Shown here: piece by piece, positions 12,718-35,112 of the stretch
How positions within the stretch are numbered: the stretch's first letter is position 1
How the letters are laid out: every line of letters begins with the position of its first letter
Assembly (NCBI GenBank): GCA_964399945.1
Contig: CAYNRT010000001.1
Location: forward strand, 1 to 35,865
DNA length: 35,865 nt
Direction of reading: 5' to 3'
DNA from: an uncultured Candidatus Saccharibacteria bacterium
GTDB taxonomy: Bacteria; Patescibacteriota; Minisyncoccia; Minisyncoccales; CG1-02-41-26
Notes under the pieces: generated by a model
Told to the model about the DNA's origin: nothing
Databases searched by the model: none
What the model saw: the letters and a program-made list of their open reading frames with translations, nothing else
Made by a program: the position numbers and the translations under genes

Positions 12718-15408
12718 ATGCCATTTGCTCAAGGAGGCGATTTTACTCATAAATCACAAGAAGCAATGATGATGGCGCAAAACTTAGCCCGTAAAAACGG
12801 CCAGCGTCAGATAGATGCCCTTCATCTTTTGAGCAGTTTGCTTAACCAGGATGAAAGCATTGTCCTTACAGTTCTTGGTGCGCTCCAGGTTGATATTGGA
12901 GACTTAAAGAGTAAGACGGAAAAAGCTCTTAATCAAATTCCCTTTCTAGGATCCTTTCAAGCATCAGGGCAACTTTATTTAACGCAGGATCTTGCTCAAG
13001 TTTTGGAAAGAGCGCGGCTTGAAGCTGTAAATATGGGCGATGAGTTTATCTCTATAGAACATTTGTTTTTAGGTATTTTATCTGCAGGGGGGAGAGCTCG
13101 GGAAATTGTAGAAAAAGCAAAATTCCTTCCCGGCGCTTCTACTACATCTTTAAATAAAGAGGTTTTCTTAAATCAGCTTTTATCAATAAGAGGAGACGAA
13201 AAAATTACTGATCCCCAGCCAGAGTCAAAATTTGAAGCGGTAAAAAAATATACTCGTAATTTATCGCAGGAAGCAAGAGAAGGAAAATTGGATCCAGTTA
13301 TCGGACGCGATGCTGAAATAAGGCGAATTATGCAGGTTCTTTGCCGGCGCACAAAAAACAACCCTGTTTTAATTGGAGAGGCTGGTGTTGGTAAAACAGC
13401 TATCGTTGAAGGCTTAGCGAAAAAAATTGTAAGTTTTGATGCTCCGGAAAGCCTGCAAAACAAGGAAATAATTGCTTTAGATTTAGGAGCCCTTATAGCC
13501 GGGACAAAATATCGGGGAGAATTTGAATCGCGGATCAAAGCTCTTCTGCGTGAGATAGAGCGTTCAAACAACAAATATATTTTATTCATTGACGAACTGC
13601 ACACTTTGGTTGGGGCAGGGGCTGCCGAAGGGGCGATAGATGCTTCTAATCTTTTGAAGCCGGCGCTTGCTCGCGGCAAACTCAGAGCTATAGGAGCAAC
13701 AACCTTAAAGGAATATCAGAAGTATATAGAAAAGGATGCGGCCTTAGAAAGGAGGTTTCAGCCTATCTATGTGCAGGAGCCTTCTGTGGAGGACACAATC
13801 AACATTTTACGAGGAATAAAGGAAAAATATGAAATGCATCACGGCGTTAAGATAAAGGATTCAGCAATAAAAGCGGCAGCCGAGCTTAGCAACCGCTATA
13901 TTACTGACAGATTTTTGCCCGATAAAGCAGTTGATTTAATGGATGAAGCTGCTTCTTCTCTGCGGATGGAAATAGAGACAGAGCCTACAGATTTAGAAGA
14001 GCTTAAAAACGAAATTACCAAACTGGCAGTTGAGAAACAATCGTTGAAAAAAGAAGGCAAAGCAAAAAGGAGAATAGCGGCAGTAGAAAGAGCCCTCGCT
14101 GACCTTAAAGAAAAGGAAAAAAATCTTCGGGTGCAGTGGAGTTTGGAAAAAAATCTGATTAATGAGATTAAAACCTTAAAAAAAGAGATAGATTCTCTAC
14201 AGCTTCAGATGGAAATTGCCCAACGCCAGGCGGATTTGGAAAAAGTTGCCGAGTTGAAATATGGAAAAATTCCTGAGATAAAGAAAAAATTAAACTCTGC
14301 GGAAAAAAAGCTGAAAAACCTTCAAAAAAAGAAGCATCTTTTAAAAGAAGAAGTTGATGAAGAAGATGTTGCCAGGGTTGTTTCCCGCTGGACAGGCATT
14401 CCTGTTACGAAACTGATTGAGGCAGAGGCGAAAAAATTGGAAAAAATGGAGGAAATTCTGCGGAAGCGTGTAATCGGGCAGGATGAAGCCATTAAAGCCG
14501 TAAGCAACGCTATTAGGCGTGGGCGTGCTGGCATTGCTGAAGAGAATAAGCCAATGGGAGTTTTTCTTTTCTTGGGTCCTACTGGTGTCGGGAAGACGGA
14601 AACAGCACGGGCGTTGGCCGACTTTCTTTTTAATACGGAAAAAGCCTTAATTCGGCTCGATATGTCCGAATATATGGAGAAATACAGCGTTTCTAAAATT
14701 ATTGGTTCTCCACCCGGTTATGTGGGCCACGAGGAAGGCGGTCAATTAACAGAAAAGGTAAGGCGGCGTCCCTACAGCGTTATTCTTCTTGACGAGATAG
14801 AAAAAGCTAACCCAGAAGTGTTCAATATCCTTCTGCAGATTTTTGAAGACGGCCGCCTCACAGATGCTAAAGGCAGATTGGTTTCTTTTAAGAATACGAT
14901 TATAATAATGACTTCTAATATTGGTTCTGAATATATTAATGAGATGCAGCCGGTTGGTTTTGAAAACCATAAAGACAATAGCGCGAGCCGTCGTGAAAAG
15001 CTTAAGAATAAGGTGTATCAGTCTTTAAGGGAAGCTTTCAAACCGGAATTTCTCAACAGAATTGATGAAGTTATTATTTTCAATTATTTAGGACGGAAAG
15101 AGATTAAGAAAATAGTTGATTTAGAGCTTAAGAAAGTAGAAGAACGTCTGAAAAAAATTAAAAGTATAAAAGTAAAGTTTTCTCCAAAACTTAAAGATTA
15201 TTTATCCGACAAAGGTTTTGATCCAAATCTGGGAGCCCGTCCGCTTAAAAGACTGATTCAAAAATTAATTCTTAATCCCTTATCAATGAAGATAATAACT
15301 GCTGAAATTGGAGAGGGTAATAGAATAACTGCTGATTTTAAAAAGGGAGAGGTTGTCTTTCATATTGAAGGAAGAAAAGAAAAACATTCTGCAAAACAGA
15401 AAACTTAA
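12718..15408 (+). CDS. clpB: ATP-dependent chaperone/disaggregase ClpB
   Basis: 896 aa. Two AAA+ modules ([15 protein letters not shown] and [15 protein letters not shown]) separated by a long coiled-coil middle domain. This is the ClpB architecture. Confidence 0.95.
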
Positions 15409-15435
15409 TATATATAATTTGGGATAATTCTAAAG

Positions 15436-15458
15436 CTGCAAAAATTGTTTTTTTGCAG
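15436..15458 (+). terminator. weak hairpin terminator after clpB
   Basis: CTGCAAAAA-TTG-TTTTTTTGCAG followed by TATTTTCTT. The stem is AT-rich, so support is modest. Confidence 0.35.
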
Positions 15459-15505
15459 TATTTTCTTAAAAGATAAACAAGGTTGAGACAGATGAAATTT
15501 TAGTT

Positions 15506-16144
15506 ATGCCCTATATCTTCTTAGATGAATCCGGTGATTTAGGTTTTAATTTTAGAAAGAAGAAAACCTCAAAATTTTTTATCATTACTTGTTTATTTGT
15601 TGTAAATAAAAGACTAATTGAGAAGAAAGTGAGAAAAACGCATGCGGAATTGAAAAAGAAGTATAAAAAAAGATTCGGTGTTCTTCATGCGGTTAAAGAG
15701 AAACCGACTGTTCGCCGAAGATTATTAAAAAGGCTAAACGAAAAGGATTGTGTGATTATGACGATTTATTTAAACAAGAAACGAGTTTATACTAGACTTC
15801 AGGAAGAAAAAGCCGTCCTTTATAATTATGTTGCCAACATTTTGCTTGACAGAATTTATTCAAAGAAGTTGGTACCAATCGGTAAAAAGATAGAACTAAT
15901 TGCTTCAAAGAGAGAAACGAACAAATTCTTGAATAAGAATTTTAGAAGATATTTAAACAGTCAAGTAAAAAACAAACATAAGATTGAGATAGTGATTAAG
16001 ATAAAAACACCTTATCAAGAAAAGTCATTACAGGCAGTGGATTTTGTAAGCCGGGCTATTTTTAGAAAGCATGAATATGGTGATGATAGTTACTACAATA
16101 TTATCAAAAGTAAAATCGTTGAAGAAAATCCTTTGTTTCCATAA
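15506..16144 (+). CDS. DUF3800-family protein (uncharacterised)
   Basis: 212 aa. N-terminal YIFLDESGD and C-terminal LQAVDFVSRAIF match my memory of the two conserved DUF3800 motifs (DES...Q-x-x-D). The gene looks visibly more AT/Lys-rich than the flanking clpB and murB. Confidence 0.65.
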   Translation: MPYIFLDESGDLGFNFRKKKTSKFFIITCLFVVNKRLIEKKVRKTHAELKKKYKKRFGVLHAVKEKPTVRRRLLKRLNEKDCVIMTIYLNKKRVYTRLQEEKAVLYNYVANILLDRIYSKKLVPIGKKIELIASKRETNKFLNKNFRRYLNSQVKNKHKIEIVIKIKTPYQEKSLQAVDFVSRAIFRKHEYGDDSYYNIIKSKIVEENPLFP

Positions 16145-22667: not shown

Positions 22668-23690
22668 ATGCAAAAGGAAAAAAACATAAATTACAAACAA
22701 CTTTCTCAAAACCTTTTAGCTGCGCTTCCGGAAAGGCAAAAAATGGTTTTAAAACAAAGGTTTGGTTTAGACGGAAGCGAAATAAAAACCTTAGAAAGCA
22801 TTGGCAGAAGCCTCGGTATTACCAGAGAAAGGGTGCGTCAAATTGAAGCTGAAGCGCTGAAGAAAATAAAAGAAAAGAACGCTTCTTCTTTAAAGAGTCT
22901 TTTTTTGATGATTGAAAGAAGATTAAAAGATTTTGGCGGGATAAAAAAAGAAGACTTGTTTTTAAGTGCTTTAGGTGACAAATCATGTCAACAAGACATT
23001 TATTTTATTCTTTCTCTTGACAATCGGCTTACACGTTTGAACGGGAATAAGAAATTTTATCCTGCCTGGATGATTGATGTAAAGCTTCTTAAAGAGGCAG
23101 AGAAAGTGATTGCTCGTTTAGAAAATTTTTTTAAGAAAAAGAAAAAACCTGTTTCTAAAAAAGAATTTAAAAACCTTGTCAAAGAAATAGGGGGAGGTGG
23201 AAATTTTGCTTTTTCTGCGATTGAAATCTCAAAAACCATAGAAGAAGGGCCTCTTGATTCTGTAGGTCTTGCGGTGTGGCCGGAGATTAATCCGCGAAGA
23301 GTTAGGGATAGAGCTTATCTTGCCCTGAAAAAGGTGGGAAAACCGCTTCATTTTGTCGAAATTGCTTCTGCGGCCGGCGCTATAAGCGGAGGACTTGTCT
23401 CGCCGCAAAATGTTTATCCTCAAACCGTCCACAATGAACTTATTAAAGATGAAAGGTTTGTGTTGGTGGGGCGCGGCATGTATGCTTTGAGTGAATGGGG
23501 TTATAAGCCGGGCAGGGTGAGAGAAATTATAGCTCAAATACTTAAGGAATCGCCCAGACCGCTTAAAAAAGAAGAGGTGATTGATAAAGTTCTTGCCCAG
23601 CGTTTTGTTAAAGAGAATACAATTTTGGTAAATTTGCAAAACAAAAATTATTTTAAAAGAGACAAAGAAAGTAAATATCATTTGGCTTAG
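22668..23690 (+). CDS. DNA-binding protein: an N-terminal sigma-70 region-4-like HTH fused to C-terminal HARE-HTH/winged-helix modules. Not a complete sigma factor.
   Basis: N-terminus LPERQKMVLKQRFGLDG...TLESIGRSLGITRERVRQIEAEALKKI is a textbook region 4.2. No region 2 is visible. C-terminus KPLHFVEIA...VHNELIKDERFVLVGRGMYALSEWGY resembles HARE-HTH. Confidence 0.6.
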   Translation: MQKEKNINYKQLSQNLLAALPERQKMVLKQRFGLDGSEIKTLESIGRSLGITRERVRQIEAEALKKIKEKNASSLKSLFLMIERRLKDFGGIKKEDLFLSALGDKSCQQDIYFILSLDNRLTRLNGNKKFYPAWMIDVKLLKEAEKVIARLENFFKKKKKPVSKKEFKNLVKEIGGGGNFAFSAIEISKTIEEGPLDSVGLAVWPEINPRRVRDRAYLALKKVGKPLHFVEIASAAGAISGGLVSPQNVYPQTVHNELIKDERFVLVGRGMYALSEWGYKPGRVREIIAQILKESPRPLKKEEVIDKVLAQRFVKENTILVNLQNKNYFKRDKESKYHLA

Positions 23691-23718
23691 ATGTCTATTC
23701 ATTACTTTAATTAAGAGC

Positions 23719-23746
23719 AAAAACGCGCTTAATAGGGCGCGTTTTT
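23719..23746 (+). terminator. rho-independent terminator
   Basis: AAAAACGCGC-TTAATAGG-GCGCGTTTTT followed by GTTTTCTGTTT. Confidence 0.7.
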
Positions 23747-23814
23747 GTTTTCTGTTTGTATTGTTAAAAGTGTTTTGAGGCGGGGAAACAAGATTATAAT
23801 TAAATAATTTAAAA

Positions 23815-23843
23815 TTGACAAAGGCTATTTTAACTTATATGAT
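23815..23843 (+). promoter_or_regulatory. sigma70-like promoter for the ATPase cassette (TTGACA-N17-TATGAT)
   Basis: Perfect -35 at 23815-23820 and -10 at 23838-23843, about 50 nt upstream of the ATG at 23896. Confidence 0.5.
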
Positions 23844-23895: not shown

Positions 23896-25515
23896 ATGAA
23901 TAAAGTAATTTTATTTGCTGAGGCTAATTTTCGCGATAAAAAAGAGGTTTTTGGTATAAAAAGGCCTGATCGCCGGCAGCATGTTTATATTATAGGAAAA
24001 ACAGGCGTAGGAAAAACTGCTTTATTGAAAAATATGGCTTTTCAGGATATTCAGAACGGAGAAGGCTTAGCCATTATTGATCCGCATGGTGAATTTGTTG
24101 AAGAGGTTTTGGAAAAAATTCCTTCCAGCCGCGTTAAAGATGTTGTTTATTTTAATCCAGCGGATATTGAACATCCCATTGGCTTCAATGTTCTAGAAGT
24201 TTCCAATCCGGACTATAAGCATTTAGTTGCTTCAGATTTAATGAGTATTTTCACGAAAATTTGGGCAAATGTCTGGTCAGCGAGAATGGAATATATTCTC
24301 AATAACTGCATTCTTGCTCTTCTTGATACGCCAGGAAGCACTCTTTTAGGCATACCTCGCATTTTAGTAGATAAAGATTACCGCCAAAAGATAGTTAACA
24401 ACATAGAAGATCCAGTAGTAAAATCCTTTTGGGTAAGTGAGTATGAGCAATGGCGCGACCAATTCAGGAATGAAGCTATAGTGCCAATTCAAAACAAAGT
24501 CGGTCAGTTTCTAAACACGTCTTTTATTCGGAACATTGTTGGTCAACCTAAAAGCACTATTAATATTTCCGAAATAATGAATAGCGGAAAAATTCTTTTG
24601 GTTAATGTTGCTAAAGGAAGAATAGGGGAGGATAATTCTGCTCTTTTGGGGGCGATATTTGTTACGAAAATGCAGTTAGCAGCCATGGAGCGCGTAAGGA
24701 TGCCTGTTGAGAAAAGAAGGGATTTCTATCTTTATGTTGACGAATTTCAGAACTTTGTTACTGAATCTTTCGCTTCAATTTTATCTGAAGCGCGTAAATA
24801 CCGCTTAAATTTGATTATTGCTCATCAGTATATAGGTCAATTAATTACTGAAACCAGCACAAGGGTGCGGGATTCTGTTTTTGGTAATGTAGGCACTTTA
24901 ATCAGTTTTCGGGTGGGGGCTGCCGACGCAGAATTTTTGGAAAAAGAATTCTATCCGGAGTTTAACGCTCAAGACTTGGTTAATCTGCCAAATTACAATA
25001 TTTATTTGAAGCTGATGATTGACGGAATGACCAGTCGTCCTTTTTCAGCGACAACTTTGCCGCCAATGGTTTTGCCGCACAACCAAAACAATAAAGAAAC
25101 AATTATTGATTTTTCCCGCAAGAAATATTCTCTGCCCCGCAAAAAAGTAGAAAAAGAAATAGCTGAATGGAGTGGAATGTCATTAAATACAGAGAATAAA
25201 GCGAAACGAGGGGTTAAGATTTTCAAGAAAAGCCCTTTCCGCAGAAGACCACAAGGAGATTTTAGCCGGCTTAGTGATTTAGGTATAGAGTTCCCTGTTA
25301 GCGGCTCGGCAAAAGCGCTTTCACAAAAAAGCGCTGTCCGAAAATTTGCCCCACCGAGCATTTCTTTAGAAGAAGCGGCGAAAAGAAGGCCTGAGAGCTT
25401 TAAAAAACGAAAAAAAATTAATATAGAAAAATTAAGAAAAATTGTAGAAGACTCTTTATTGGAGAACGAGAGAAATCAAAGCAGCGAACAATTGGAAAAG
25501 GAAGAAAAAAATTAA
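23896..25515 (+). CDS. soluble VirD4/TraD/TraG-like (FtsK-HerA superfamily) P-loop NTPase, paralog A, with a long basic C-terminal tail
   Basis: 539 aa. Walker A HVYIIGKTGVGKT sits at about residue 30, with no N-terminal TM segment. Also IDPHGEF, Walker B DFYLYVDEFQNF and AHQYIGQL. The last ~130 residues are a Lys/Arg-rich low-complexity tail. Confidence 0.65.
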   Translation: MNKVILFAEANFRDKKEVFGIKRPDRRQHVYIIGKTGVGKTALLKNMAFQDIQNGEGLAIIDPHGEFVEEVLEKIPSSRVKDVVYFNPADIEHPIGFNVLEVSNPDYKHLVASDLMSIFTKIWANVWSARMEYILNNCILALLDTPGSTLLGIPRILVDKDYRQKIVNNIEDPVVKSFWVSEYEQWRDQFRNEAIVPIQNKVGQFLNTSFIRNIVGQPKSTINISEIMNSGKILLVNVAKGRIGEDNSALLGAIFVTKMQLAAMERVRMPVEKRRDFYLYVDEFQNFVTESFASILSEARKYRLNLIIAHQYIGQLITETSTRVRDSVFGNVGTLISFRVGAADAEFLEKEFYPEFNAQDLVNLPNYNIYLKLMIDGMTSRPFSATTLPPMVLPHNQNNKETIIDFSRKKYSLPRKKVEKEIAEWSGMSLNTENKAKRGVKIFKKSPFRRRPQGDFSRLSDLGIEFPVSGSAKALSQKSAVRKFAPPSISLEEAAKRRPESFKKRKKINIEKLRKIVEDSLLENERNQSSEQLEKEEKN

Positions 25516-25525
25516 AAGCTTTATT

Positions 25526-25547
25526 AAGCAGCCGTGCGGGCTTGCTT
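25526..25547 (+). terminator. weak hairpin between the two ATPase genes
   Basis: AAGCAGCC-GTGCG-GGCT(T)GCTT, 8 bp with one bulge, followed by TTCTGTGTGTTTGG. Confidence 0.3.
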
Positions 25548-25588
25548 TTCTGTGTGTTTGGAGATATTGGCTTTAATAAGCCGGAAAT

Positions 25589-25616
25589 TTGAAAAAACAA
25601 TATCTTATGCTATGCT
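25589..25616 (+). promoter_or_regulatory. possible internal promoter for ATPase paralog B (TTGAAA-N16-TATGCT)
   Basis: Hexamers read directly at 25589-25594 and 25611-25616. Confidence 0.3.
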
Positions 25617-25658
25617 GGAAACAAACCTTTTGCCCTGTTGGAGCTGTTTCTTAATTAT

Positions 25659-27137
25659 ATGCCTAAGAAAGAAGTAAGAATTCGCAAAATTAAATTGGCG
25701 CCTCCTCCTCCTGAGTTGCCGATTTTCGGCAAAGTTGATCCGAAAAAATGCTCTTTTTTTGGCAGAACAAACTATGAGGCGCCTTTGGAAGAGAAAAAAT
25801 TTATTTTTGGCATTAAACGAAAGGACAGAAGGCGACACGTTTACATTGTTGGTAAAAGCGGCGTTGGCAAAAGCAAGCTTTTGGAACTTTTGATACGTCA
25901 GGACATTGCTTATGGGCATGGTCTCTGTCTAATTGATCCTCATGGCGATGTTATTGAAAATGTCCTTGATTTTATTCCGGAAAACAGAATTAACGATGTT
26001 GTTCTTGTTGATCCTTCAGACAAAGACTTTCCTGTTTCTTTTAATCCTATACAGAATGTAGCGCCTGAGCTGAAACACCAAGTAGCCCAGGGACTGATAG
26101 AGGTTTTGGAAAAACAGTTTGGGGCAAACTGGACTCCAAGACTGGAGCATGTTTTTCGTTTTACTGTTTTAGCTCTGCTTGATTACCCTAAAGCAACAAT
26201 GCATGGAATGATTTCAATGCTTACTGATAGAAATTATCGCCAGAGGGTTGTTGATTATATTGAAGACGATATGGTTAAAAAGTTTTGGGCAATTGAGTTT
26301 GCCGATTGGTCAGAAAAATTTGATACAGAAGCGATTATCCCTTTAGTTAATAAACTAGGTCAGTTTTTGTCAAATCCGCTTTTACGGAATATTTTTGGCC
26401 AGGAAAAAAACAAGATAGATTTGGAATATATTATGAACAGCGGAAAAATACTTTTAATATCTCTTTCCAAAGGCAAATTGGGCGAAGAAAACTCCAGTTT
26501 TTTTGGTTCAATGTTTATTACTAAACTTTATCAGGCAGGAATGGCGCGTGCTTCAATGAGAGAAGAAGAAAGAAAAGATTTTTATCTTTATATTGACGAG
26601 TTTTATAATTTAGTAACAAACACTTTTGAAAACTTGTTCTCCGAATCGCGCAAGTATGGCCTTTGCATCACAGTTGCCCACCAATACATTGCTCAACTTC
26701 TACCCTCGGTGATGGAAACGGTTCTTGGCAATACAGGGACGATAATAGTTTTTCGTGTTGGTGGAAACGACGCCCGCAAGCTGGTCCCGGAAATGACACC
26801 GGTTTTTCAAGCACAAGACATGATAAACCTGGGGACAAGAGAATTTTTTATTAAAATGACCATCGACGGAGATACCTTCGATCCTTTTTCGGCGGAAACT
26901 TTAAAAGTTTTTCCTCCTACTAATATTTCTTGTCGTGAAGCAATATTAAGACAAAGCCGGCAGAAATATGCAGTTCCAATAGCAGAGGTAAAAACGGAAC
27001 TGAAAAGGATAATTGGAGGGAAAAGCGCTAACGAAGAAGCTAAGAAGGAGGTGGAAAAAGAAAAAAATGCAAAAGAGGGGATAGCTGATCAAAAAAAGAC
27101 AGATAGTAAATCTGAAGGTGATGAACCCATTGTGTGA
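25659..27137 (+). CDS. soluble VirD4/TraD/TraG-like P-loop NTPase, paralog B, with an acidic/Lys-rich C-terminal tail
   Basis: Colinear with paralog A: FGIKRKDRRRHVYIVGKSGVGKS, IDPHGD, IMNSGKILL, DFYLYIDEFYN, AHQYIAQL. The N-terminal extension has a proline run (LAPPPPELPIFGKV). Ends ...SKSEGDEPIV with a TGA stop. Start taken at ATG 25659; the track uses a TTG at 25638. Confidence 0.65.
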   Translation: MPKKEVRIRKIKLAPPPPELPIFGKVDPKKCSFFGRTNYEAPLEEKKFIFGIKRKDRRRHVYIVGKSGVGKSKLLELLIRQDIAYGHGLCLIDPHGDVIENVLDFIPENRINDVVLVDPSDKDFPVSFNPIQNVAPELKHQVAQGLIEVLEKQFGANWTPRLEHVFRFTVLALLDYPKATMHGMISMLTDRNYRQRVVDYIEDDMVKKFWAIEFADWSEKFDTEAIIPLVNKLGQFLSNPLLRNIFGQEKNKIDLEYIMNSGKILLISLSKGKLGEENSSFFGSMFITKLYQAGMARASMREEERKDFYLYIDEFYNLVTNTFENLFSESRKYGLCITVAHQYIAQLLPSVMETVLGNTGTIIVFRVGGNDARKLVPEMTPVFQAQDMINLGTREFFIKMTIDGDTFDPFSAETLKVFPPTNISCREAILRQSRQKYAVPIAEVKTELKRIIGGKSANEEAKKEVEKEKNAKEGIADQKKTDSKSEGDEPIV

Positions 27138-27174
27138 AAATCAAAGTTTTTAGTATAATAAAATAAAAAACAAA

Positions 27175-27396
27175 ATGTTTTTAGCAGAGGCAATAAAAAT
27201 TTTGTTAATTGCCAGCGGTCTCCTTTTTGTCGTTTTCGCCTATTTTTGCGATCTTTGGACTGAACGTGATCCGCGGCGGCCGGAAAATATATTAGCGGGA
27301 ATAGCGATTTCCTCTTTATATGTTTTTAAAATTATTTTTTTTAGTTTTTTGATAATTTTTGTTTTTTCTTTGTTTTTGGACAAAATTATTTATTAA
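27175..27396 (+). CDS. small two-helix membrane protein, unknown function
   Basis: 73 aa. Two hydrophobic segments (ILLIASGLLFVVFAYF and IIFFSFLIIFVFSLFL) flank a charged loop (ERDPRRPEN). Packed tightly between cassette genes. Confidence 0.5.
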   Translation: MFLAEAIKILLIASGLLFVVFAYFCDLWTERDPRRPENILAGIAISSLYVFKIIFFSFLIIFVFSLFLDKIIY

Positions 27397-27425
27397 AGAT
27401 AGAAAAATGAAAATGCTTTAAATTT

Positions 27426-28748
27426 ATGCTTGCAGATATATTTTCAACAATTGTCCTTTTTTTGAGAGAATGGTGGTGGCTTATTCTGCCGCTAATTCTT
27501 TATCCTGCTGCCAAGAATCTTTATCTTTATTGGATTGGCTGGGAAATTTTTTACAGGAGAGGAATTGATAAAGATTGGGGATTGTTTGAGATTATTCCAC
27601 CTAGTGAAATAGAGAAGCCTTTCAAAGCAATGGAGGATATTTTTACTCGTTTATGGCCCATATATGACGGTCCCTGCTGGCGCGAAAGGTGGTGTGGCGG
27701 TGAATTCCCGAGCGCTTTTTGGTTTTCCTTCGAAATTGTAAGTATTGAAGGAAAAGTGCATTTTTATATCCGCATTCAGAAAAAAGCACGGGCAACTTTG
27801 GAAACAGCAATTCAAACTCATTATCCGGAAGCTGAAATTATTGAGGTTGAGGATTATACGTTGAAAGTGCCGCAGGACGTGCCCAATAGAAAGTATGAAA
27901 TGTACGGTGAAGATTACAAATATTGGCTTGATGAAGTTATGCCCATTAAGACGTACGAATATTTTGAATCTTCTTTTCCAGAAAGTATTCCCGGTGAAAA
28001 AAAGATGGATCCTATTTATTCATTACTTGAACATCTTACTAAGCTACGTCAAGGTGAGCAGTTTTGGGTGCAGGCAGTTTGTGCTCCTGTAACCAATAAA
28101 GAGATACCTTGGGTGGACATGATTAAGGATAGGATAAATAAAGAGGTGGGCCGGAAGGCAAATGAGAAACCAAGATCAATAGTAAGTCAAATTTTAGGAT
28201 TGCTTTTTTTTGGCAAGCCGTTAGCAGTTGAAAAAGCAGCCGAGTCTGTTATTCCTCCAGAGATGCATCTTACGCCGGGCGAGAAAGAAACAGTTGCTGA
28301 CTTGGAGAAAAAGAAAGGCAAATACGGCTTTAAGGTTTGGATGCGTACTGTTTATCTGGCAGAGCGGGAGAAATACTTTTCTCCAAACGGAAAGATATTC
28401 AGAGGTTATTTGAGTCATTTTGTCTCCGCTGGTAATTTTATTATGTTTTGGTCTAAAACTCGCCCGCGGCTCCAATATTTTTTCCGCCGCCGTCGGGAGT
28501 ATAAGCGTAAAAGAGATATCTTTGAAAAATATGTCAAGAGACTGCCGCCGAAATATCCGAATATAGTAGAGGGCACTTCAATTCTAAGCACCCAAGAATT
28601 AGCAAGTTTGTTTCATTTTCCGCTTAAGGCTTCAAATCTGCCTCCGGGCGTACCGCGAGTTGTGGTAAGAAAAAGAGATTTGCCGCCGGGCGTACCCCTA
28701 GAAAGCGCGGGGCAGAAGGCGGAAGACAAACAAGCGAAAAATATATAA
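27426..28748 (+). CDS. membrane-anchored protein of unknown function (Trp/Cys-rich, basic C-terminal region with a tandem LPPGVP motif)
   Basis: 440 aa. Hydrophobic N-terminus (WWWLILPLILYPAA...YLYWIGWEIF). No catalytic motif recognised. C-terminus reads ELASLFHFPLKASNLPPGVPRVVVRKRDLPPGVPLE. Confidence 0.6.
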   Translation: MLADIFSTIVLFLREWWWLILPLILYPAAKNLYLYWIGWEIFYRRGIDKDWGLFEIIPPSEIEKPFKAMEDIFTRLWPIYDGPCWRERWCGGEFPSAFWFSFEIVSIEGKVHFYIRIQKKARATLETAIQTHYPEAEIIEVEDYTLKVPQDVPNRKYEMYGEDYKYWLDEVMPIKTYEYFESSFPESIPGEKKMDPIYSLLEHLTKLRQGEQFWVQAVCAPVTNKEIPWVDMIKDRINKEVGRKANEKPRSIVSQILGLLFFGKPLAVEKAAESVIPPEMHLTPGEKETVADLEKKKGKYGFKVWMRTVYLAEREKYFSPNGKIFRGYLSHFVSAGNFIMFWSKTRPRLQYFFRRRREYKRKRDIFEKYVKRLPPKYPNIVEGTSILSTQELASLFHFPLKASNLPPGVPRVVVRKRDLPPGVPLESAGQKAEDKQAKNI

Positions 28749-31675: not shown

Positions 31676-31679
31676 ACTT

Positions 31680-32045
31680 CTGGCTGGCCTGTAAGCCGAA
31701 TTCTGTCATCCCGCTGAAAACGGGACGGATAATCATTTATCTAGGCCGGCGGTTACCCGACGGCTCAAGCGAAGCACCTTTTTGAGCAGTAATGCCCAAA
31801 AACTTTCTTCTTGCACCCGATAAGGATTTAGCCGTTTCACCTTCGCATTACTGCGAAGCTCATCCTGAAGGACAGGATGCCTTGGCTTTTCAGCTTCGGC
31901 GTCTCTGTTCGCACCTCTATCCCGCTAAAAGCGGGACGGCGGGTGTTACCCGCTATCTTTTTAGACCTCGCCGGAGGCGAGGAATGGGTGTTCGGACTTT
32001 CCTCCTTCCCGCTAAAAGCAGGAAGGCGATTATCCGGCCAGCCTT
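31680..32045 (-). ncRNA. rnpB: RNase P RNA, bacterial type A
   Basis: The minus strand reads GGCTGGCCGGATAATCGCC...GGGAAGGAGGAAAGTCCGAACACC (universal CR-I GAGGAAAGUCCG)...GGGTAACACCCGCC...GGTGAAACGG...GGCCTAGATAAATGATTATCC...ACAGAATTCGGCTTACAGGCCAGCC. The P1 stem pairs 5' GGCTGGCC with 3' GGCCAGCC. It is a GC-rich island in AT-rich DNA. End coordinates are approximate, within about 5 nt. Confidence 0.88.
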
Positions 32046-32167: not shown

Positions 32168-33085
32168 TTAAATTTTCAAGTATTTTTGGACAGCTATTGA
32201 AAAAGAGGAGGCTCCCAATAGGAAAATAATTGAAATTTGCGCTCCAAATAAGAGAAGGAAATTGCGGCCGAAAAAGGATAAAATATTAAAGCCTAAAAAC
32301 CAATTCTGAAACCAGTTATTCAATAAAAGAAAGCAAATTAGAAGTAAAACATCAACTACTAAAATAGAGACAAGGCCATAGATAAAAACCTGAACTAAGA
32401 AAGGCGCCTTGATAAACCAATTAGAGGCGCCGACCAAGCGCATTGTTGCAATTTCTTCACTTTTTGTCAGAATAGTTAGTTTTATTGTATTAAGTACGAT
32501 CAAAAAAACCAAAACCATTAAGCCGGCTGAAAAAAATATTCCAGCATTGTTTACTTTTGAAGTAAAGGAAAAAAGACGCTCAATAACATTCTTGTTTTGG
32601 TAATAAGATATTTTTTCAATCAGTCCGCTAAAAGGCGGCTTGCTTAGAAAATCAGAAATTTGATCGTAGGCAGATAGATTTTTTGCCTTAATATTCAAAT
32701 AGGGGAGGAAAGGATTGCCTCCGACTTCTTTTAATGCGTCTAGATATAGAGAATCTTGCTGATGACGTTTGATAAACTTGTCTTTTGCTTGTTCTGCCGA
32801 GATGTATTCCACGGCTTCAATGTTTTCAGAAAACTGATAGAGTTTCTCCTTAACTTCCAATATGCTGTTTTCAGAGACGTTCTTTTTAAAATAAACCGAA
32901 ATATCTACTTTTTTCTGAGCTTCTTCTATTAAAAAGCTGCTTAACTCCCTGAATATAAAAAGAGAGGTGAGGGTTAAGATAGAGAAAGTCATTATAAAGA
33001 TAACCTGCAGGCTTAATCCTTTATTTCTCATAATATCCTGGAAGGCAAATTTAATTACGCGTTTTAGATTGGGCATAGATAACAT
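32168..33085 (-). CDS. ftsX: cell division ABC-transporter permease-like protein FtsX
   Basis: 305 aa. TM1, a large extracytoplasmic domain, then three TM segments. MRLVGASNWFIKAPFLVQ matches the FtsX signature. Downstream of ftsE. Confidence 0.85.
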   Translation of the reverse strand: MLSMPNLKRVIKFAFQDIMRNKGLSLQVIFIMTFSILTLTSLFIFRELSSFLIEEAQKKVDISVYFKKNVSENSILEVKEKLYQFSENIEAVEYISAEQAKDKFIKRHQQDSLYLDALKEVGGNPFLPYLNIKAKNLSAYDQISDFLSKPPFSGLIEKISYYQNKNVIERLFSFTSKVNNAGIFFSAGLMVLVFLIVLNTIKLTILTKSEEIATMRLVGASNWFIKAPFLVQVFIYGLVSILVVDVLLLICFLLLNNWFQNWFLGFNILSFFGRNFLLLFGAQISIIFLLGASSFSIAVQKYLKI

Positions 33086-33156
33086 AAATGTTAGATAGTA
33101 ATTTTAATTAAGGCGATGTAGTACTTCGAAAATCTATGGTATTGTCATATGTTTTA

Positions 33157-33846
33157 TTATAATATAAATTTTCCTTTTCTTTTATCTTGGATAATTTTAC
33201 CATGTTCCAAAGTAATTACTCTTTGCTCTAAATTATCAACGATTTCTTTGCTGTGAGTAGCCAAGATAATAGTTGTTCCGAAACGGTGTATTTTTTTAAA
33301 AACATTAATAACAGAGAAGCTGTTGTAAAGATCCAAGTTACCGGTCGGTTCATCAGCCAAAATAACTTTAGGTCGATGGCATAAAGCTCTGGCTATGGCC
33401 AACCTTTGTTTTTCTCCTCCTGAAAGTTCGTCCGGAAAATTATCACGTCTATTTAAAAGACCTACTATGTCTAAAACTTGTGGCACATCGCGCTTGATTT
33501 CTTCATTAGACGCGCCGATAACCTGCATAACATATTCAAGATTTTCGCTGACTGTTTTAGAGAAAAGAAGCTTATAATCTTGATGAACAACGCCAATATT
33601 TCTCCTTAAAGCCTGCAGTTCTTCTTTTTTCATTGAGGGAATGCTTTCGCCTTTGAAAAAAATGTCTCCATTGGTAGGCCTTTCTTCGCCTATCAGAAGC
33701 TTTACAAGAGTGCTTTTGCCTGCGCCAGATTTGCCGACAATTGATACAAACTCGCCCTCTGATATTTCGAAGGATACATTGTCCAAAGCGACTATTGGAC
33801 CGCTTTGGATTTTGTATATCTTGCTGATATTTTGGAATTTAATCAT
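33157..33846 (-). CDS. ftsE: cell division ATP-binding protein FtsE
   Basis: GKSGAGKSTL Walker A, LSGGEKQRLAIARAL signature and ILADEPTGNLD Walker B. Paired with ftsX. Confidence 0.9.
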   Translation of the reverse strand: MIKFQNISKIYKIQSGPIVALDNVSFEISEGEFVSIVGKSGAGKSTLVKLLIGEERPTNGDIFFKGESIPSMKKEELQALRRNIGVVHQDYKLLFSKTVSENLEYVMQVIGASNEEIKRDVPQVLDIVGLLNRRDNFPDELSGGEKQRLAIARALCHRPKVILADEPTGNLDLYNSFSVINVFKKIHRFGTTIILATHSKEIVDNLEQRVITLEHGKIIQDKRKGKFIL

Positions 33847-33855
33847 ATATAATAA

Positions 33856-34899
33856 TTACACGCGTAATTCAGCTTTAATAAAAATATTTATATCTCCATT
33901 TAATACCTTTTCTGCATTTGAAGTTTCTATGCCAGTGCGGTGGTCTTTAACCATTTTGTAAGGGTGTAGAATGTAGGAACGGATTTGGCGGCCAAAATCA
34001 GGCGAAGTCTTTTTCCCTTTTAAATTGTTTATCTCTTTTTCAGTTTCTTTTTCTGCTAATTGTGCAAGTTTAGAAATCAGCATATCTAAGGCTGTTTTTC
34101 TGTTGAGTCCTTGCAAACGCTCAATTTGTGATTCAGTTTTTATGCCGGTAGGGATGTGAGTGATTCTAACAGCTGATTCTCTTTTGTTAACATACTGGCC
34201 GCCTGGTCCGGAAGCTCTAAAGGTTTCTATCCGCAAATCTTCCGGATTAATTTTTATAGATTCTTTACCGGTAGAAGATATTTTGGGAATCACCTCGACG
34301 CTAGCAAAAGAAGTATGCCTGAGTTGCTTAGCGGAAAAAGGGGATATACGCACTAAACGATGAACCCCAGTCTCTCTTTTTAAAAGTCCGTAGGTAAAAG
34401 CCCCATTAATTTCAAGAGAGCATTCCTTTATGCCGTTTCTTCCTTCGCTCCCGCCCGGTTCGCCAAATCGTTGAAATAATATCCTATATTTGAAACCTTT
34501 ATTTTCTGCCCATTTTTGATACATTCGCAGAAGCATAGCTGTCCAATCTTCTGCATCTCGTCCGCCTGTTCCGCTTTGCAGGATAAGAATAGCCGCTCTT
34601 TTGTCATATTTTCCAGATAAAAGAACGTTCTTTTCAAGTCTTTCCGTTTTAAGTGTTAAAAGCTTTAACTCTTTCTTTAAATCCTCTAAGTCTTTATCTG
34701 AAGCTAAAGAAAAGAGGGAATCAAAGACATCTAACTCTCTCTTCAGATGCTTGATTTCTATTTCCCATTGTTGTTTTTTTTGCTGACTGTTGTCTGTTTC
34801 TTTGCTCCCTTGTTTGATTTTTCCACTTTTAATTTTGCTTTCCAGAAAAGCTAACGTTTCTTTTATTTTTTTTATTTCATTATCTATTCCGTTCTTCAT
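33856..34899 (-). CDS. prfB: peptide chain release factor 2, encoded as one uninterrupted ORF (no programmed +1 frameshift)
   Basis: 347 aa. SPF tripeptide (RISPFSAK), GGQ motif (SGPGGQYVNKRESAVRITHIPTG) and GTGGRDAEDW. Confidence 0.9.
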   Translation of the reverse strand: MKNGIDNEIKKIKETLAFLESKIKSGKIKQGSKETDNSQQKKQQWEIEIKHLKRELDVFDSLFSLASDKDLEDLKKELKLLTLKTERLEKNVLLSGKYDKRAAILILQSGTGGRDAEDWTAMLLRMYQKWAENKGFKYRILFQRFGEPGGSEGRNGIKECSLEINGAFTYGLLKRETGVHRLVRISPFSAKQLRHTSFASVEVIPKISSTGKESIKINPEDLRIETFRASGPGGQYVNKRESAVRITHIPTGIKTESQIERLQGLNRKTALDMLISKLAQLAEKETEKEINNLKGKKTSPDFGRQIRSYILHPYKMVKDHRTGIETSNAEKVLNGDINIFIKAELRV

Positions 34900-35112
34900 T
34901 ATTTAAATTTAACATAAATTACCCTTCAATAAAAGTTTTAAAAATAAAGGCATATAGAAACTTCTTAGTCTTACATGCAACGTGTGGGCTGTTTTTAGTA
35001 TTTTTAGTTGTTAAATCCAACAGCGCTTTAATTTTCAATTGATATTTATTTTTAGGATACCAAATGTATTGCAGTCAGTGTGTTTAAAAAGGAATATGGT
35101 ACTCCAGATGCC

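Follow-up and report, generated by a model that had tools for sequence, protein, structure and literature searches.

A DUF8128 protein and two VirD4-like ATPases at a conserved chromosomal locus in Patescibacteria

We read the four-gene cassette described here, with a probability of about one half, as a local, rearranged and minimal form of a Patescibacteria-wide machine that has a DUF8128 protein (L) and two coupling-protein-like ATPases (A and B) as its core. L and A together correspond to a single Bacillus phage polypeptide with an N-terminal DUF8128-like half and a C-terminal ATPase half, and the inferred function is that of a membrane-tethered two-motor translocase. The architecture of the module appears to be undescribed.

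The locus and its surroundings

The window, that is, the whole 35,865-nt stretch of DNA analysed, carries the genes A, B, S and L in this order, and analysis of the open reading frames confirmed that all four lie on the same strand (Table 1). The mechanical reading frame of B runs from a TTG (25638-27137) and encodes 499 aa; public gene calls use the ATG at 25659. The initial annotation had given secDF and pgk as the flanks of the cassette. Both are present in the window, but the immediate upstream gene is not secF; it encodes SigHARE, which matches Sigma70_r4 (58.7 bits) and the RNAP-delta-like HARE-HTH domain (28 bits) in Pfam, and the RpoD C-terminus (67 bits) and TIGR04567 (26.8 bits) in NCBIfam. 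The strong terminator and consensus promoter reported 5' of the cassette were both recovered, as consensus matches only, the stem of the terminator-like hairpin comprising 17 pairs, 6 of them GC, with a T-run after it.

Table 1. Features of the cassette and its upstream neighbour, in window coordinates.
Feature	Position	Strand	Basis or remark
SigHARE, 340 aa, conserved module neighbour on the upstream side	22668..23690	+	Pfam, NCBIfam, synteny
Terminator-like hairpin closing the SigHARE gene	23714..23751	+	Consensus match only
Sigma-70-like promoter match upstream of A	23815..23843	+	TTGACA-17-TATGAT, 11/12 positions; consensus match only
A, A-type T4CP-like ATPase, 539 aa	23896..25515	+	Pfam, AF2/Foldseek, synteny
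Walker A of A, GKTGVGKT, residues 34-41	23995..24018	+	Read from sequence
Walker B of A, DFYLYVDEF, residues 276-284	24721..24747	+	Read from sequence
B, B-type T4CP-like ATPase, 492 aa from ATG	25659..27137	+	Pfam, homolog identity
N-terminal peptide of B, KLAPPPPELP	25692..25721	+	Motif also present in DUF8128 C-tails
Conserved C-terminal end of B, DEPIV	27120..27134	+	Family comparison
S, two-TM hairpin protein, 73 aa	27175..27396	+	Hydrophobic segments, homologs
L, DUF8128 protein, 440 aa	27426..28748	+	PF26449, AF2 fold
C-tail peptide of L, RKRDLPPGVPLE	28668..28703	+	Degenerate copy of the KKGxPPxxLPxE junction motif

The window is otherwise housekeeping in content (dprA, pth, lepB, hisS, HIT, ybeY, ftsA, ftsZ, nrdDG, comEC, htrA, clpB, DUF3800, murB, secA, secDF, pgk, a DHH protein, rnhA, ftsXE, prfB and the RNase P RNA). 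No relaxase, VirB4, VirB6, pilin or integrase gene was found in its 35,865 nt, which bears out the claim that this chromosome segment is free of mobile-element and other T4SS genes; the window likewise has no repeats or tRNA genes and is unremarkable in composition. A proposed link to DNA uptake was not upheld, co-residence with comEC and dprA in a housekeeping region being its sole support.

The ATPases A and B

A and B share 47% identity over 419 aa, and both contain the intact motifs ascribed to them: the Walker sequences listed in Table 1 and AHQYIGQL in A, and GKSGVGKS, DFYLYIDEF and AHQYIAQL in B. Residues G34, K35, G37, G39 and K40 of the A Walker A motif and D282 and E283 of its Walker B motif are invariant (alignment A2), and conservation of the catalytic residues in both families agrees with the earlier view that both motors are intact and retained. 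Both proteins score over the Pfam thresholds for TrwB_AAD_bind (A, 55 bits; B, 43 bits), TraG-D_C (B, 28.8 bits) and DUF87. The AF2 model of A (pLDDT 81.6) has TrwB as its top Foldseek match (E 1e-13, TMt 0.62), followed by Cag-beta, DotL, HerA and the VirB4-CTD; profiles and fold thus agree in placing these ATPases in the VirD4/TraD branch, as first proposed. Scores for AAA_10 and TIGR00929 are below threshold, there is no Pfam match to FtsK_SpoIIIE (E 0.21) and no gamma domain, and every NCBIfam TraD/VirD4 equivalog cut-off lies far above the scores obtained (for example, 54 vs 366 bits). In NCBI these proteins carry the name 'type IV secretion system DNA-binding domain-containing protein'. 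Neither A nor B has a TM segment, in keeping with their description as anchor-less.

The two proteins end differently. A has a basic C-terminal tail, which in canonical A-type proteins accompanies a C-terminal treble-clef zinc finger (CxxC-x17-CxxC); PF23477 is missing from close homologs of A and present in more distant ones, and the finger has been lost in the window's clade. B-type proteins terminate in E/A-P-[LIM]-[VILM] after a K/E-rich linker in 25 of 26 family members, so that the acidic SEGDEPIV tail noted in B is a conserved family feature.

A is 60-79% identical to its counterparts across orders, and B shares 70-84% identity with its homologs from Portnoy-, Kuenen-, Giovannoni- and Parcubacteria, the B-type alignment (A3) having a mean column identity of 80%. 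In 83 loci the ATPases adjoining DUF8128 all score best to A, which is the ortholog of the ATPase 3' of DUF8128 in other lineages. A-type and B-type proteins constitute two ancient, phylum-wide and very conserved paralog families, and a cassette whose ATPase families span the phylum is not the orphan it was taken for. A local duplication of A as the origin of B is ruled out by the antiquity and conservation of the two families. Against the closest relatives, all four genes gave pN values of 0.11-0.26 with saturated pS (about 0.75), and pN was lower for A and B than for pgk; the purifying selection in question for the 73-aa and 440-aa reading frames is thus seen for every gene of the cassette, and both of these frames have homologs.

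L and S

L, which could not initially be assigned to any family, belongs to Pfam PF26449 (DUF8128) by precomputed annotation. Its AF2 model (pLDDT 85.6, pTM 0.80) begins with a Trp-rich hydrophobic helix at residues 2 to 50, for which the best 19-residue Kyte-Doolittle score, 1.55, is slightly below the usual 1.6 cut-off. In a Foldseek search of the PDB all 13 matches with E<=1e-3 were TrwK/VirB4, at a modest TM of 0.35-0.38. The DUF8128 profile matched neither PDB sequences nor TrsD and TrsE of pGO1, and the VirB4 likeness is therefore one of fold, without sequence-level support. As modelled, the cytoplasmic domain of L resembles the N-terminal domain of VirB4, a likeness that displaces the suggestion of a novel channel. 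The companion suggestion, that L is an anchor or partner of the ATPases, gains support from its adjacency to them in about 150 loci, from the phage fusion and from the shared junction peptide described below.

S contains two hydrophobic segments (residues 1-29 and 38-73), as expected of the two-helix membrane protein predicted earlier, and matches nothing in Pfam or NCBIfam. Homologs identified by position and sequence occur in 23 of 81 loci, all in one subclade, with a dN/dS of 0.13-0.26. S is a clade-level accessory directly 5' of the DUF8128 gene.

Gene order across Patescibacteria

The arrangement SigHARE-L-A is nearly universal in 83 GTDB loci, with A immediately 3' of L in at least 60. 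SigHARE lies 5' of DUF8128 in almost every L-centred locus, and in the majority of B-centred loci extending to that point. The canonical order is sigma-r4/HARE-HTH gene, DUF8128 gene, A-type ATPase gene. Many lineages have B near this module, frequently accompanied by zinc-finger protein arrays; of 20 B-centred loci flanked by 6 kb or more on each side, 15 have L or A within 10 kb of B, the gene set being kept while its order varies. The A-B-S-L order, for which a test of conservation across Patescibacteria had been proposed, is common to L084 and L086 and absent from every other sampled locus; it is a derived, clade-specific minimal rearrangement. The locus is syntenic across hundreds of species, keeping company with secDF, pgk and a transcription-factor-like gene and not with virB4, and a low-sensitivity search of 167 related loci found no T4SS components.

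A peptide shared by L and B

The C-tails of DUF8128 proteins and the N-termini of B-type ATPases have a short proline-rich peptide in common. Counted as [KR]x0-3[AGSEP]PPx1-2LP, it is present in 71 of 82 B N-termini, 74 of 119 L tails and none of 99 A proteins, against a background of 1 occurrence in about 370,000 residues. K416, P420 and P424 of L are nearly invariant (alignment A1), and the profile alignment extends through the junction. The motif has diverged in the L tail of the window, in a clade where A no longer comes after L. Its restriction to these two positions points to either a split gene or a shared docking peptide.

Fused homologs in Bacillus phages

L matches positions 74-220 of the phrog_5156 profile, and A and B match about 390-820. 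The SPO1 protein gp27.4 aligns with L over residues 153-303 and with the ATPase over 418-828 (probability 99.2%), and in BFVD L matched phage G gp156 (825 aa, E 4e-16) as well as gp155. Both halves of these Bacillus phage proteins (phrog_5156; SPO1, phage G, CP-51, JL and others) are homologous to L and to A or B and stand in that order, and the phage loci resemble the window in having small TM proteins upstream of the fused gene. They differ in being single polypeptides of 825-906 aa, with only 22-26% identity, and, unlike L, they have neither the PPxxLP peptide nor an N-terminal TM helix. In phage G the fused DUF8128-ATPase, gp156, has a TrbL/VirB6-like protein (gp153) and a VirB4-type protein (gp155) as neighbours and sits in the position of a coupling protein. 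The SPO1 fused gene has no adjacent VirB4 and lies between genes annotated 'partition protein' and 'replication initiation by nicking'.

Relation to known secretion systems

A and B share with the VirD4/TrwB/TraD/TraG coupling proteins a Walker A/B domain with a helical insertion between the motifs, and TrwB is their best match by both sequence and structure. Classical coupling proteins (T4CPs) carry an N-terminal transmembrane domain in the same polypeptide, whereas A and B do not; further differences are the two conserved paralogs per genome, the chromosomal position beside housekeeping genes and away from any relaxase or T4SS gene, and the C-terminal treble-clef finger of canonical A. With VirB4 (TrwK/TraC/CagE) the likeness lies in L, which has a VirB4-like fold and sits 5' of a related ATPase. 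The order small TM protein, NTD-like protein, ATPase parallels VirB3-VirB4 and TrsC-TrsD-TrsE of staphylococcal pGO1; PMC12102498 describes TrsD as remotely homologous to the VirB4 N-terminus. However, the ATPase half resembles VirD4 more closely than VirB4, L has no sequence-level similarity to TrsD or TrsE, S lacks a VirB3 signature, and no VirB6 or VirB8 lies near the cassette. FtsK/SpoIIIE and the type VII ATPases EssC/EccC belong with A and B to the FtsK-HerA superfamily and share a logic of membrane-anchored motors with several ATPase modules, joined in T7SS by substrate gene arrays; the likeness is one of logic only, with no family-level sequence match.

A and B are almost certainly what Quinonero-Coronel et al. 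2025 (PMC12102498) counted as 'T4CP homologues'. These homologues are VirD4-like, number about 2 per genome in 96% of genomes (5,713 in 2,918 of 3,035), lie mostly far from virB4 (only 148 near it) and have their function left open; the two-family picture of A and B fits these figures. In the passages covered, that paper mentions no split into two paralog families, no DUF8128 partner, no conserved locus and no zinc-finger arrays.

A two-motor translocase and its alternatives

In the mechanism we propose, the N-terminal hydrophobic helix would hold L in the membrane and L would tether a ring of A to it. The C-terminal [KR]..PPxxLP peptide of L may dock in trans; in B this peptide stands in cis, immediately before the ATPase domain. 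We infer a physical assembly of L, A and B, and a ring stoichiometry in which A and B would form mixed or stacked rings. The differing tails could recruit partners or cargo, through the basic tail of A and, in most lineages, its treble-clef finger, and through the acidic linker of B ending in EP[LIM][V]. ATP hydrolysis would then drive a macromolecule, DNA or protein, at the membrane.

We favour, as an unproven extension, the view that the module is the coupling or translocation ATPase missing from the Patescibacteria T4SS cluster, which is located elsewhere, near dnaA. The essential T4SS cluster of S. epibionticum has no recognisable coupling protein (PMC10633639), and PMC12102498 reports a T4SS in most Patescibacteria genomes, so that the stated absence of other T4SS genes holds for the window and not necessarily for the genome. 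If this view is correct, the VirB4-like domain of L would be a docking route onto the T4SS apparatus. Against it, the ATPases are more widespread than VirB4 (96% and 80% of genomes), and S. epibionticum ML1 is reported to have a non-essential t4cp homologue although its T4SS is essential. Synteny with secDF, pgk and a transcription-factor-like gene and not with virB4, the SPO1 fusion without an adjacent VirB4, the degenerate L tail of the window and the low-sensitivity search of 167 loci, negative for T4SS components, also count against it.

A stand-alone membrane-anchored DNA pump unrelated to T4SS, either FtsK/SpoIIIE-like (segregation, dimer resolution) or an uptake or export motor (archaeal Ced, H. 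pylori ComB4), is a serious but unlikely alternative. TrwB-type motors are DNA-dependent ATPases. A pump of this kind would also fit with genes that are nearly universal, very highly conserved and fixed in a housekeeping setting, with the zinc finger and basic tail of canonical A, with the two HTH domains encoded upstream, with the partition and nicking-type neighbours of SPO1 gp27.4, and with weak NCBIfam matches to CedD and CedB. The FtsK_SpoIIIE result and missing gamma domain speak against it, and ftsK is mentioned in Saccharibacteria papers, which implies that some Patescibacteria, at least, possess a normal FtsK. Deletion of comEC abolishes competence in S. epibionticum, with no stated need for these ATPases, the ML1 homologue is reported as non-essential, and soluble zinc-finger arrays beside B would be unexpected for a chromosome pump.

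Those arrays bring in a second, distinctly improbable alternative: stand-alone protein export or handling with a type VII-like logic, X58x zinc-finger proteins as cargo, and cargo genes moved or lost in the window's clade. X58x genes form tandem arrays of up to about 12 paralogs around B in many lineages; their products are soluble, with no N-terminal hydrophobic or TM segment, as for T4/T7 substrates, and share treble-clef fingers with A. T4CPs recognise protein effectors in other systems. But no channel component has been identified, X58x genes occur neither in the window nor in 81 of 83 L-centred loci, and X58x paralogs are fairly conserved (mean column identity 55%), unlike typical fast-evolving effectors; X58x is a candidate cargo only.

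A role in anti-phage defence, with a HerA/TraD-like ATPase at the heart of, for example, a MADS-like or HerA-effector module, is very improbable. PADLOC gave mad8 matches of 65 and 46 bits and weak HerA matches, X187, a TM protein with weak HEPN-like features, lies between L and B in other lineages, and Fic and AbiEii genes occur near some loci; but the mad8 similarity is limited to the shared P-loop fold, the window contains no other gene of a MADS or HerA-partner type (methyltransferase, Sir2, NurA, nuclease), and a near-universal, fixed locus with 70-84% identity across orders is the opposite of patchy, fast-evolving defence islands. Last, a decayed integrated conjugative element with a duplicated, degenerating coupling protein, which the T4SS and conjugation names of the Pfam families and NCBI proteins might suggest, is effectively refuted by synteny across hundreds of species and by purifying selection stronger than on pgk, in a window of unremarkable composition free of integrase, relaxase, repeats and tRNA, where the catalytic motifs are intact and B represents an ancient family and no decaying copy.

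Two coupling-protein-like ATPases in a four-gene cassette

The initial annotation proposed four genes on one strand: two ATPases (A and B), a 73-residue protein (S) and a 440-residue protein (L). All four open reading frames are present in the sequence. A and B, which share 47% identity across 419 residues, both contain the Walker motifs and the AHQY motif given for them. Its further claim that the window holds no mobile-element gene and no additional T4SS gene also stood; the rest of the window consists of housekeeping genes (dprA, pth, lepB, hisS, HIT, ybeY, ftsA, ftsZ, nrdDG, comEC, htrA, clpB, DUF3800, murB, secA, secDF, a sigma-r4/HARE-HTH gene, pgk, a DHH protein, rnhA, RNase P RNA, ftsXE and prfB). 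Homologues place the source organism within the Patescibacteria.

Coordinates of features in the window and in the compared loci (L handles)
Feature	Sequence	Position	Strand	Remark
DUF3800 gene	window	15506-16144	+	between clpB and murB
Terminator-like hairpin	window	23714-23751		5' of A
Promoter match	window	23815-23843		11/12; 5' of A
A	window	23896-25515	+	539-aa ORF
B	window	25638-27137	+	499-aa ORF; public gene calls: ATG at 25659, 492 aa
S	window	27175-27396	+	73-aa ORF
L	window	27426-28748	+	440-aa ORF
RNase P RNA	window	31676-32045	-	between rnhA and ftsX
X58x array	L170	1-21439		
X58x array	L144	2544-18479		
X58x array	L161	1-9503		
X58x array	L156	6138-15644		
X58x array	L129			
X58x array	L117			
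X187-type gene	L091	7087-7650		
1,164-aa protein	L052	9363-12857		Minisyncoccus archaeiphilus PMX.108
Fic-domain gene	L005	1925-3100		adjoins DUF8128 gene
Fic-domain gene	L090	4910-5971		adjoins DUF8128 gene
Phage G gp153-gp156	L172	274-5838		
SPO1 gp27.4 region	L088	1774-7284		

Both ATPases exceed the Pfam thresholds for TrwB_AAD_bind, TraG-D_C and DUF87. On TrwB_AAD_bind (threshold 20.5) A scores 55 bits and B scores 43, with the match covering profile positions 14-312 of 387. Both fall far below all curated NCBIfam cut-offs for TraD, VirD4 and VirB4 (best scores 54 bits to SXT_TraD, cut-off 366, and 56 bits to CD1115, cut-off 250), and the only solved relatives found by sequence were TrwB and, weakly, DotL. 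When an alignment-based AlphaFold model of A (pLDDT 81.6) was searched with Foldseek, TrwB was the best match (E 1e-13, TMt 0.62-0.64), followed by Cag-beta, DotL, HerA, DndH-C and the C-terminal domain of VirB4. In the model, as in TrwB, a block of helices (residues ~105-230) separates the two Walker motifs, so that the all-alpha NBD insertion of type IV coupling proteins (T4CPs) is present; the C-terminal 110 residues are disordered apart from a terminal helix. A and B are T4CP-type motors.

They also depart from known T4CPs. VirD4, TrwB and TraD carry an N-terminal transmembrane domain in the same polypeptide, whereas neither A nor B has a hydrophobic segment by hydropathy, the sole basis on which transmembrane segments were called here; Walker A occupies residues 34-41 of A and 72-79 of B (numbering of the 499-residue ORF). 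T4CPs are also encoded with a relaxase and/or VirB4 and VirB6, but none of these occurs in the window or in 12 Pfam-annotated related loci, and a phmmer search of low sensitivity recovered no T4SS components among 10,817 ORFs of 167 related loci.

Scores to VirB4-type ATPases are below threshold for both proteins (AAA_10 12-21 bits against 27.5; TIGR00929 17-19 bits against 643). FtsK_SpoIIIE (PF01580) gave E 0.21 for A and no match for B, and the gamma (KOPS/SRS-binding) domain is absent. Against the idea that A and B replace FtsK stands also the mention of ftsK in papers on Saccharibacteria, the literature on Paceibacteria being indecisive. DUF87 would admit HerA, but this domain is common to the whole clade; HerA_C is weak, and no HerA partner (NurA, Sir2 or nuclease) was found in the window. 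The ATPase profile aligned to both TrsE and TrsK of the staphylococcal plasmid pGO1 only around Walker B, a comparison that does not discriminate between them.

The predicted structure of L

Hydropathy places two hydrophobic segments in S and an N-terminal Trp-rich hydrophobic helix in L. Neither protein matched Pfam (local copy), NCBIfam or PADLOC. A precomputed Pfam label, PF26449 (DUF8128), is attached to a protein identical to L and to most of its homologues; our own scan of the local Pfam copy gave no match of L to PF26449. The family is large: a first search gave more than 400 matches, and an exhaustive profile search gave 2,733 clusters (50% identity, E<=0.001). A literature search returned no papers on DUF8128, PF26449 or phrog_5156, a phage protein family matched by L.

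The confident AlphaFold model of L (pLDDT 85.6, pTM 0.80) appears to have a VirB4-like fold. In a PDB fold search all 13 matches at E<=1e-3 were TrwK/VirB4 chains of the R388 T4SS, with probabilities of 0.99-1.0 but modest TM scores (0.35-0.38), and the remainder was noise. ATPase-only structures, namely VirB4 restricted to its C-terminal domain (4ag5), TrwB and HerA, did not match, so the model appears to resemble the part of VirB4 that lies N-terminal to the motor. The same assignment is suggested by the position of L-like sequence at the N-terminus of fused phage proteins (described below). The DUF8128 profile found no match among PDB sequences even at E 10, scored an hhalign probability of 0.5% against pGO1 TrsD (a single-sequence template of limited sensitivity) and showed no similarity to pGO1 TrsE; as sequence similarity to TrsD and TrsE is lacking, it is fold and fusion that connect L with VirB4. 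VirB4 proteins (TrwK, TraC, CagE) hold both domains in one polypeptide of ~800 residues, whereas in Patescibacteria they would be split into L and A.

A conserved locus across the phylum

The DUF8128 gene was found in at least 545 genomes among GTDB species representatives, nearly all with Patescibacteria-type labels and including the cultured Minisyncoccus archaeiphilus. Among 83 fetched loci the order secD-secF-SigHARE-L-A(-pgk-DHH-rnhA), where SigHARE is a sigma-70 region 4/HARE-HTH gene, is nearly universal. An ATPase gene lies directly downstream of L in at least 60 of the 83, most other contigs ending too early, and every ATPase adjoining L in these loci scores best to A. The locus is conserved across the phylum. 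Most A-type proteins carry a C-terminal CxxC-x17-CxxC treble-clef zinc finger (PF23477/TIGR04272), which the A of the window has lost.

The order in the window, SigHARE-A-B-S-L-pgk, recurs in the two closest relatives (L084 and L086; L 60-63% identical). The canonical order is kept in a relative at 53% identity, and a third variant, secF-A-(B inverted)-SigHARE-S-L-pgk, occurs on two more contigs. Only 23 of 81 loci were found to have an S-like ORF with two transmembrane segments immediately upstream of L; these belong without exception to the subclade closest to the window, and S was on this count rejected as a universal component; SigHARE abuts L in loci without S. In size, topology and position S is similar to VirB3/PrgI/TrsC, but it has no Pfam or NCBIfam signature and this restricted distribution, and pGO1 TrsC matched none of the ORFs of the 167 loci (phmmer, low sensitivity). 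One locus that seemed to have no ATPase (L005) was discarded as such, since Fic and other accessory genes are inserted there before the contig ends.

Selection on the four genes was assessed by comparison with L084 and L086, from which the window differs by a saturated pS of ~0.75. The pN values are 0.17 (A), 0.11-0.19 (B), 0.18-0.26 (S) and 0.23-0.25 (L), with 0.24-0.25 for pgk. All four genes are under strong constraint, and the ATPases are more constrained than pgk in this comparison.

Several neighbours of the locus were recorded. SigHARE (340 aa; 22668-23690 on the + strand of the window) combines an N-terminal sigma-70 region 4 with a C-terminal HARE-HTH of the RNAP-delta kind. With its counterparts in L001-L171, it precedes DUF8128 in nearly all cases, including those in which secDF and pgk do not adjoin; a regulator, a DNA adaptor and an RNAP factor are candidate roles. 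In M. archaeiphilus PMX.108 a 1,164-residue protein is encoded between DUF8128 and the A-type ATPase; its N-terminus (…AFTLIELLVIIAII…) resembles that of a type IV prepilin, and its large C-terminal region is rich in Ser, Thr and Gly. Fic-domain genes adjoin DUF8128 in two unrelated loci, in one of which (L090) an AbiEii gene is also nearby.

The B-type family and its companions

Homologues of B in Portnoy-, Kuenen-, Giovannoni- and Parcubacteria are 70-84% identical to it and have no zinc finger, and the alignment of the family has a mean column identity of 80%. A recent tandem duplication of A was accordingly rejected; the B-type proteins form a separate, widespread family. In 80 metagenomic loci centred on B-type genes, B is usually in the same locus as L and A, arranged as L-X187-B-…-A, L-A-…-B-…-pgk, L-B-A or A-B, and among the 20 loci that extend 6 kb or more to each side, 15 have L or A within 10 kb. 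A constant gene set in a changing order argues for a functional link of B with L and A.

Two further families accompany B-type genes in many lineages, and neither is present in the window. X58x proteins are soluble and Cys-rich, ~560-620 residues long, with treble-clef fingers at both ends; their genes often border that of the B-type ATPase, in many lineages as tandem arrays with as many as ~12 paralogues. X187 proteins (~180 residues, one transmembrane helix) are encoded between DUF8128 and the B-type ATPase, with similar genes in 22 of 48 B-centred loci, and have a C-terminal domain with an R-x4-H motif and weak hints of HEPN_Swt1 and Hypoth_Ymh. A search of the X58x profile against PDB sequences and PHROGs gave nothing usable, and both families are without a solved or annotated relative.

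A peptide shared by the tail of L and the N-terminus of B

B-type proteins have a conserved N-terminal extension (…IRKIKxAPPPPELPVYG…FFGRTNYE…). Canonical L proteins end in …VPRVExKKGGPPPxLPxE, and A proteins begin with …ITFFAKTNFR…. A profile joining the last 45 residues of L to the A N-terminus (60 loci) aligns through the junction to the profile of B N-termini, and does so even in local mode. Of 119 L tails, 74 carry the motif [KR]x0-3[AGSEP]PPx1-2LP, as do 71 of 82 B N-termini; none of 99 A proteins has it, against a background of one occurrence in ~370,000 residues of other ORFs. Together, the shared motif and the junction alignment make the DUF8128 tail equivalent to the B segment just upstream of the ATPase domain. 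The segment may be what a gene split left behind, or else a docking peptide common to L and B. In the window, the tail of L (RKRDLPPGVPLE) carries a diverged form of the junction motif. At the other end the two ATPases diverge: 25 of 26 B sequences finish in E/A-P-[LIM]-[VILM], preceded by a charged linker, and the A C-terminus is a conserved helix.

Fused relatives in Bacillus phages

The best matches of L to viral models are Bacillus phage proteins of ~800-900 residues, led by phage G gp156 (E 4e-16). On phrog_5156 (824 positions) L matches positions 74-220, and A and B match ~390-820. On SPO1 gp27.4 (906 aa), residues 153-303 are covered by the L profile and residues 418-828 by the ATPase profile (probability 99.2%). 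These three alignments define the phage proteins as a DUF8128-like N-terminus joined to an ATPase C-terminus, a fusion confined to the phage relatives. The fused gp156 of phage G follows gp153 (TrbL/VirB6-like, 44 bits), the small gp154 and gp155, a bona fide VirB4-type ATPase (P-loop_TraG 57 bits, AAA_10 36 bits); from these neighbours, the fused family holds the position of the coupling protein in a T4SS-like cluster.

This miniature cluster of a jumbo phage is followed by an HNH endonuclease. In SPO1, gp27.4 is preceded by three small hydrophobic proteins (gp27.5-27.7) and flanked by gp27.9 and gp27.3, annotated as 'partition protein' and 'replication initiation by nicking'. An IMG/VR scan with the DUF8128 profile, which was pattern-based and reaches near relatives only, found none.

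Possible roles of the L-A-B unit

Patescibacteria, host-dependent bacteria with tiny genomes, make up a large share of bacterial diversity, yet according to Quinonero-Coronel et al. (2025, PMC12102498) they retain about two T4CP-like ATPases in ~96% of genomes, with a role left open. The same study describes a T4SS in 2,417 of 3,035 genomes, comprising VirB4, TrsD, PrgI/VirB3, VirB6 and VirB2-like pilins and often near dnaA, and 5,713 VirD4-like 'T4CP homologues' in 2,918 genomes, of which only 148 are near virB4. The resulting ~1.96 homologues per genome fits one A-type and one B-type protein. The essential T4SS cluster of S. epibionticum is reported to be without recognisable coupling and relaxase proteins (Wang et al. 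2023, PMC10633639).

We favour the reading, with a probability of roughly 0.4-0.5, that L, A and B form the coupling or translocation unit of a T4SS encoded elsewhere in the genome. L would tether A, and perhaps B, to the membrane via the junction peptide and would offer docking on the T4SS through its VirB4-like domain; A and B might assemble as mixed or stacked rings, with partners or cargo selected by their divergent tails and DNA or protein moved by ATP hydrolysis. The unit would then be the missing substrate-recruitment module of the essential Patescibacteria T4SS and would point to candidate cargo. Against such a link stand the wider occurrence of the ATPases relative to VirB4, the synteny of the module with housekeeping genes, the failure of the low-sensitivity search to yield a T4SS gene from 167 related loci, and the observation in PMC12102498 that the T4CP homologue of S. 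epibionticum ML1 is not essential. The authors of that study add that exaptation 'cannot be ruled out'.

If the unit works alone, it would be a new transport system. One such reading, which we consider rather unlikely, is a T4SS-independent, phylum-wide translocation machine derived from a coupling-type ATPase that had kept a VirB4-type N-terminal domain, which would make it a living VirB4-VirD4 intermediate. The ancestral gene would later have been divided in two and its product joined by a second motor, giving a new transport class specific to ultra-small bacteria that moves DNA or the X58x proteins of the neighbouring arrays. A stand-alone DNA pump is unlikely, and a stand-alone protein system with X58x as its cargo is more doubtful again. 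A defence system is highly improbable: the PADLOC lead to mad8 (MADS) was rejected, there being no other MADS genes and no domain information in the MADS preprint. A decayed conjugative element is scarcely credible for genes under such constraint.

With these results, a gene count that had no explanation becomes a defined candidate machine whose parts can be tested, and a cultured carrier of the locus exists in M. archaeiphilus. What the analysis adds is two ancient ATPase families, a DUF8128 partner, a fixed locus, a junction peptide and zinc-finger arrays; the passages of the literature that were examined contain no account of two separate families, of a partnership with DUF8128, of the conserved locus or of the arrays. 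The family also bears on the origin of coupling proteins from VirB4.

Other features of the window

The RNase P RNA is of bacterial class A and full length (RF00010, 125 bits). The DUF3800 gene lies in the lowest-GC kilobase of the window (0.295 at 15001-16000, against ~0.38 elsewhere) and may be a small acquired insert. GC skew changes sign at 1-1000 and 33000-35000, with the switch to minus-strand genes (dprA and pth at the 5' end; ftsX, ftsE and prfB at the 3' end), and at both ends of the window appears to track the coding strand rather than a replication landmark.
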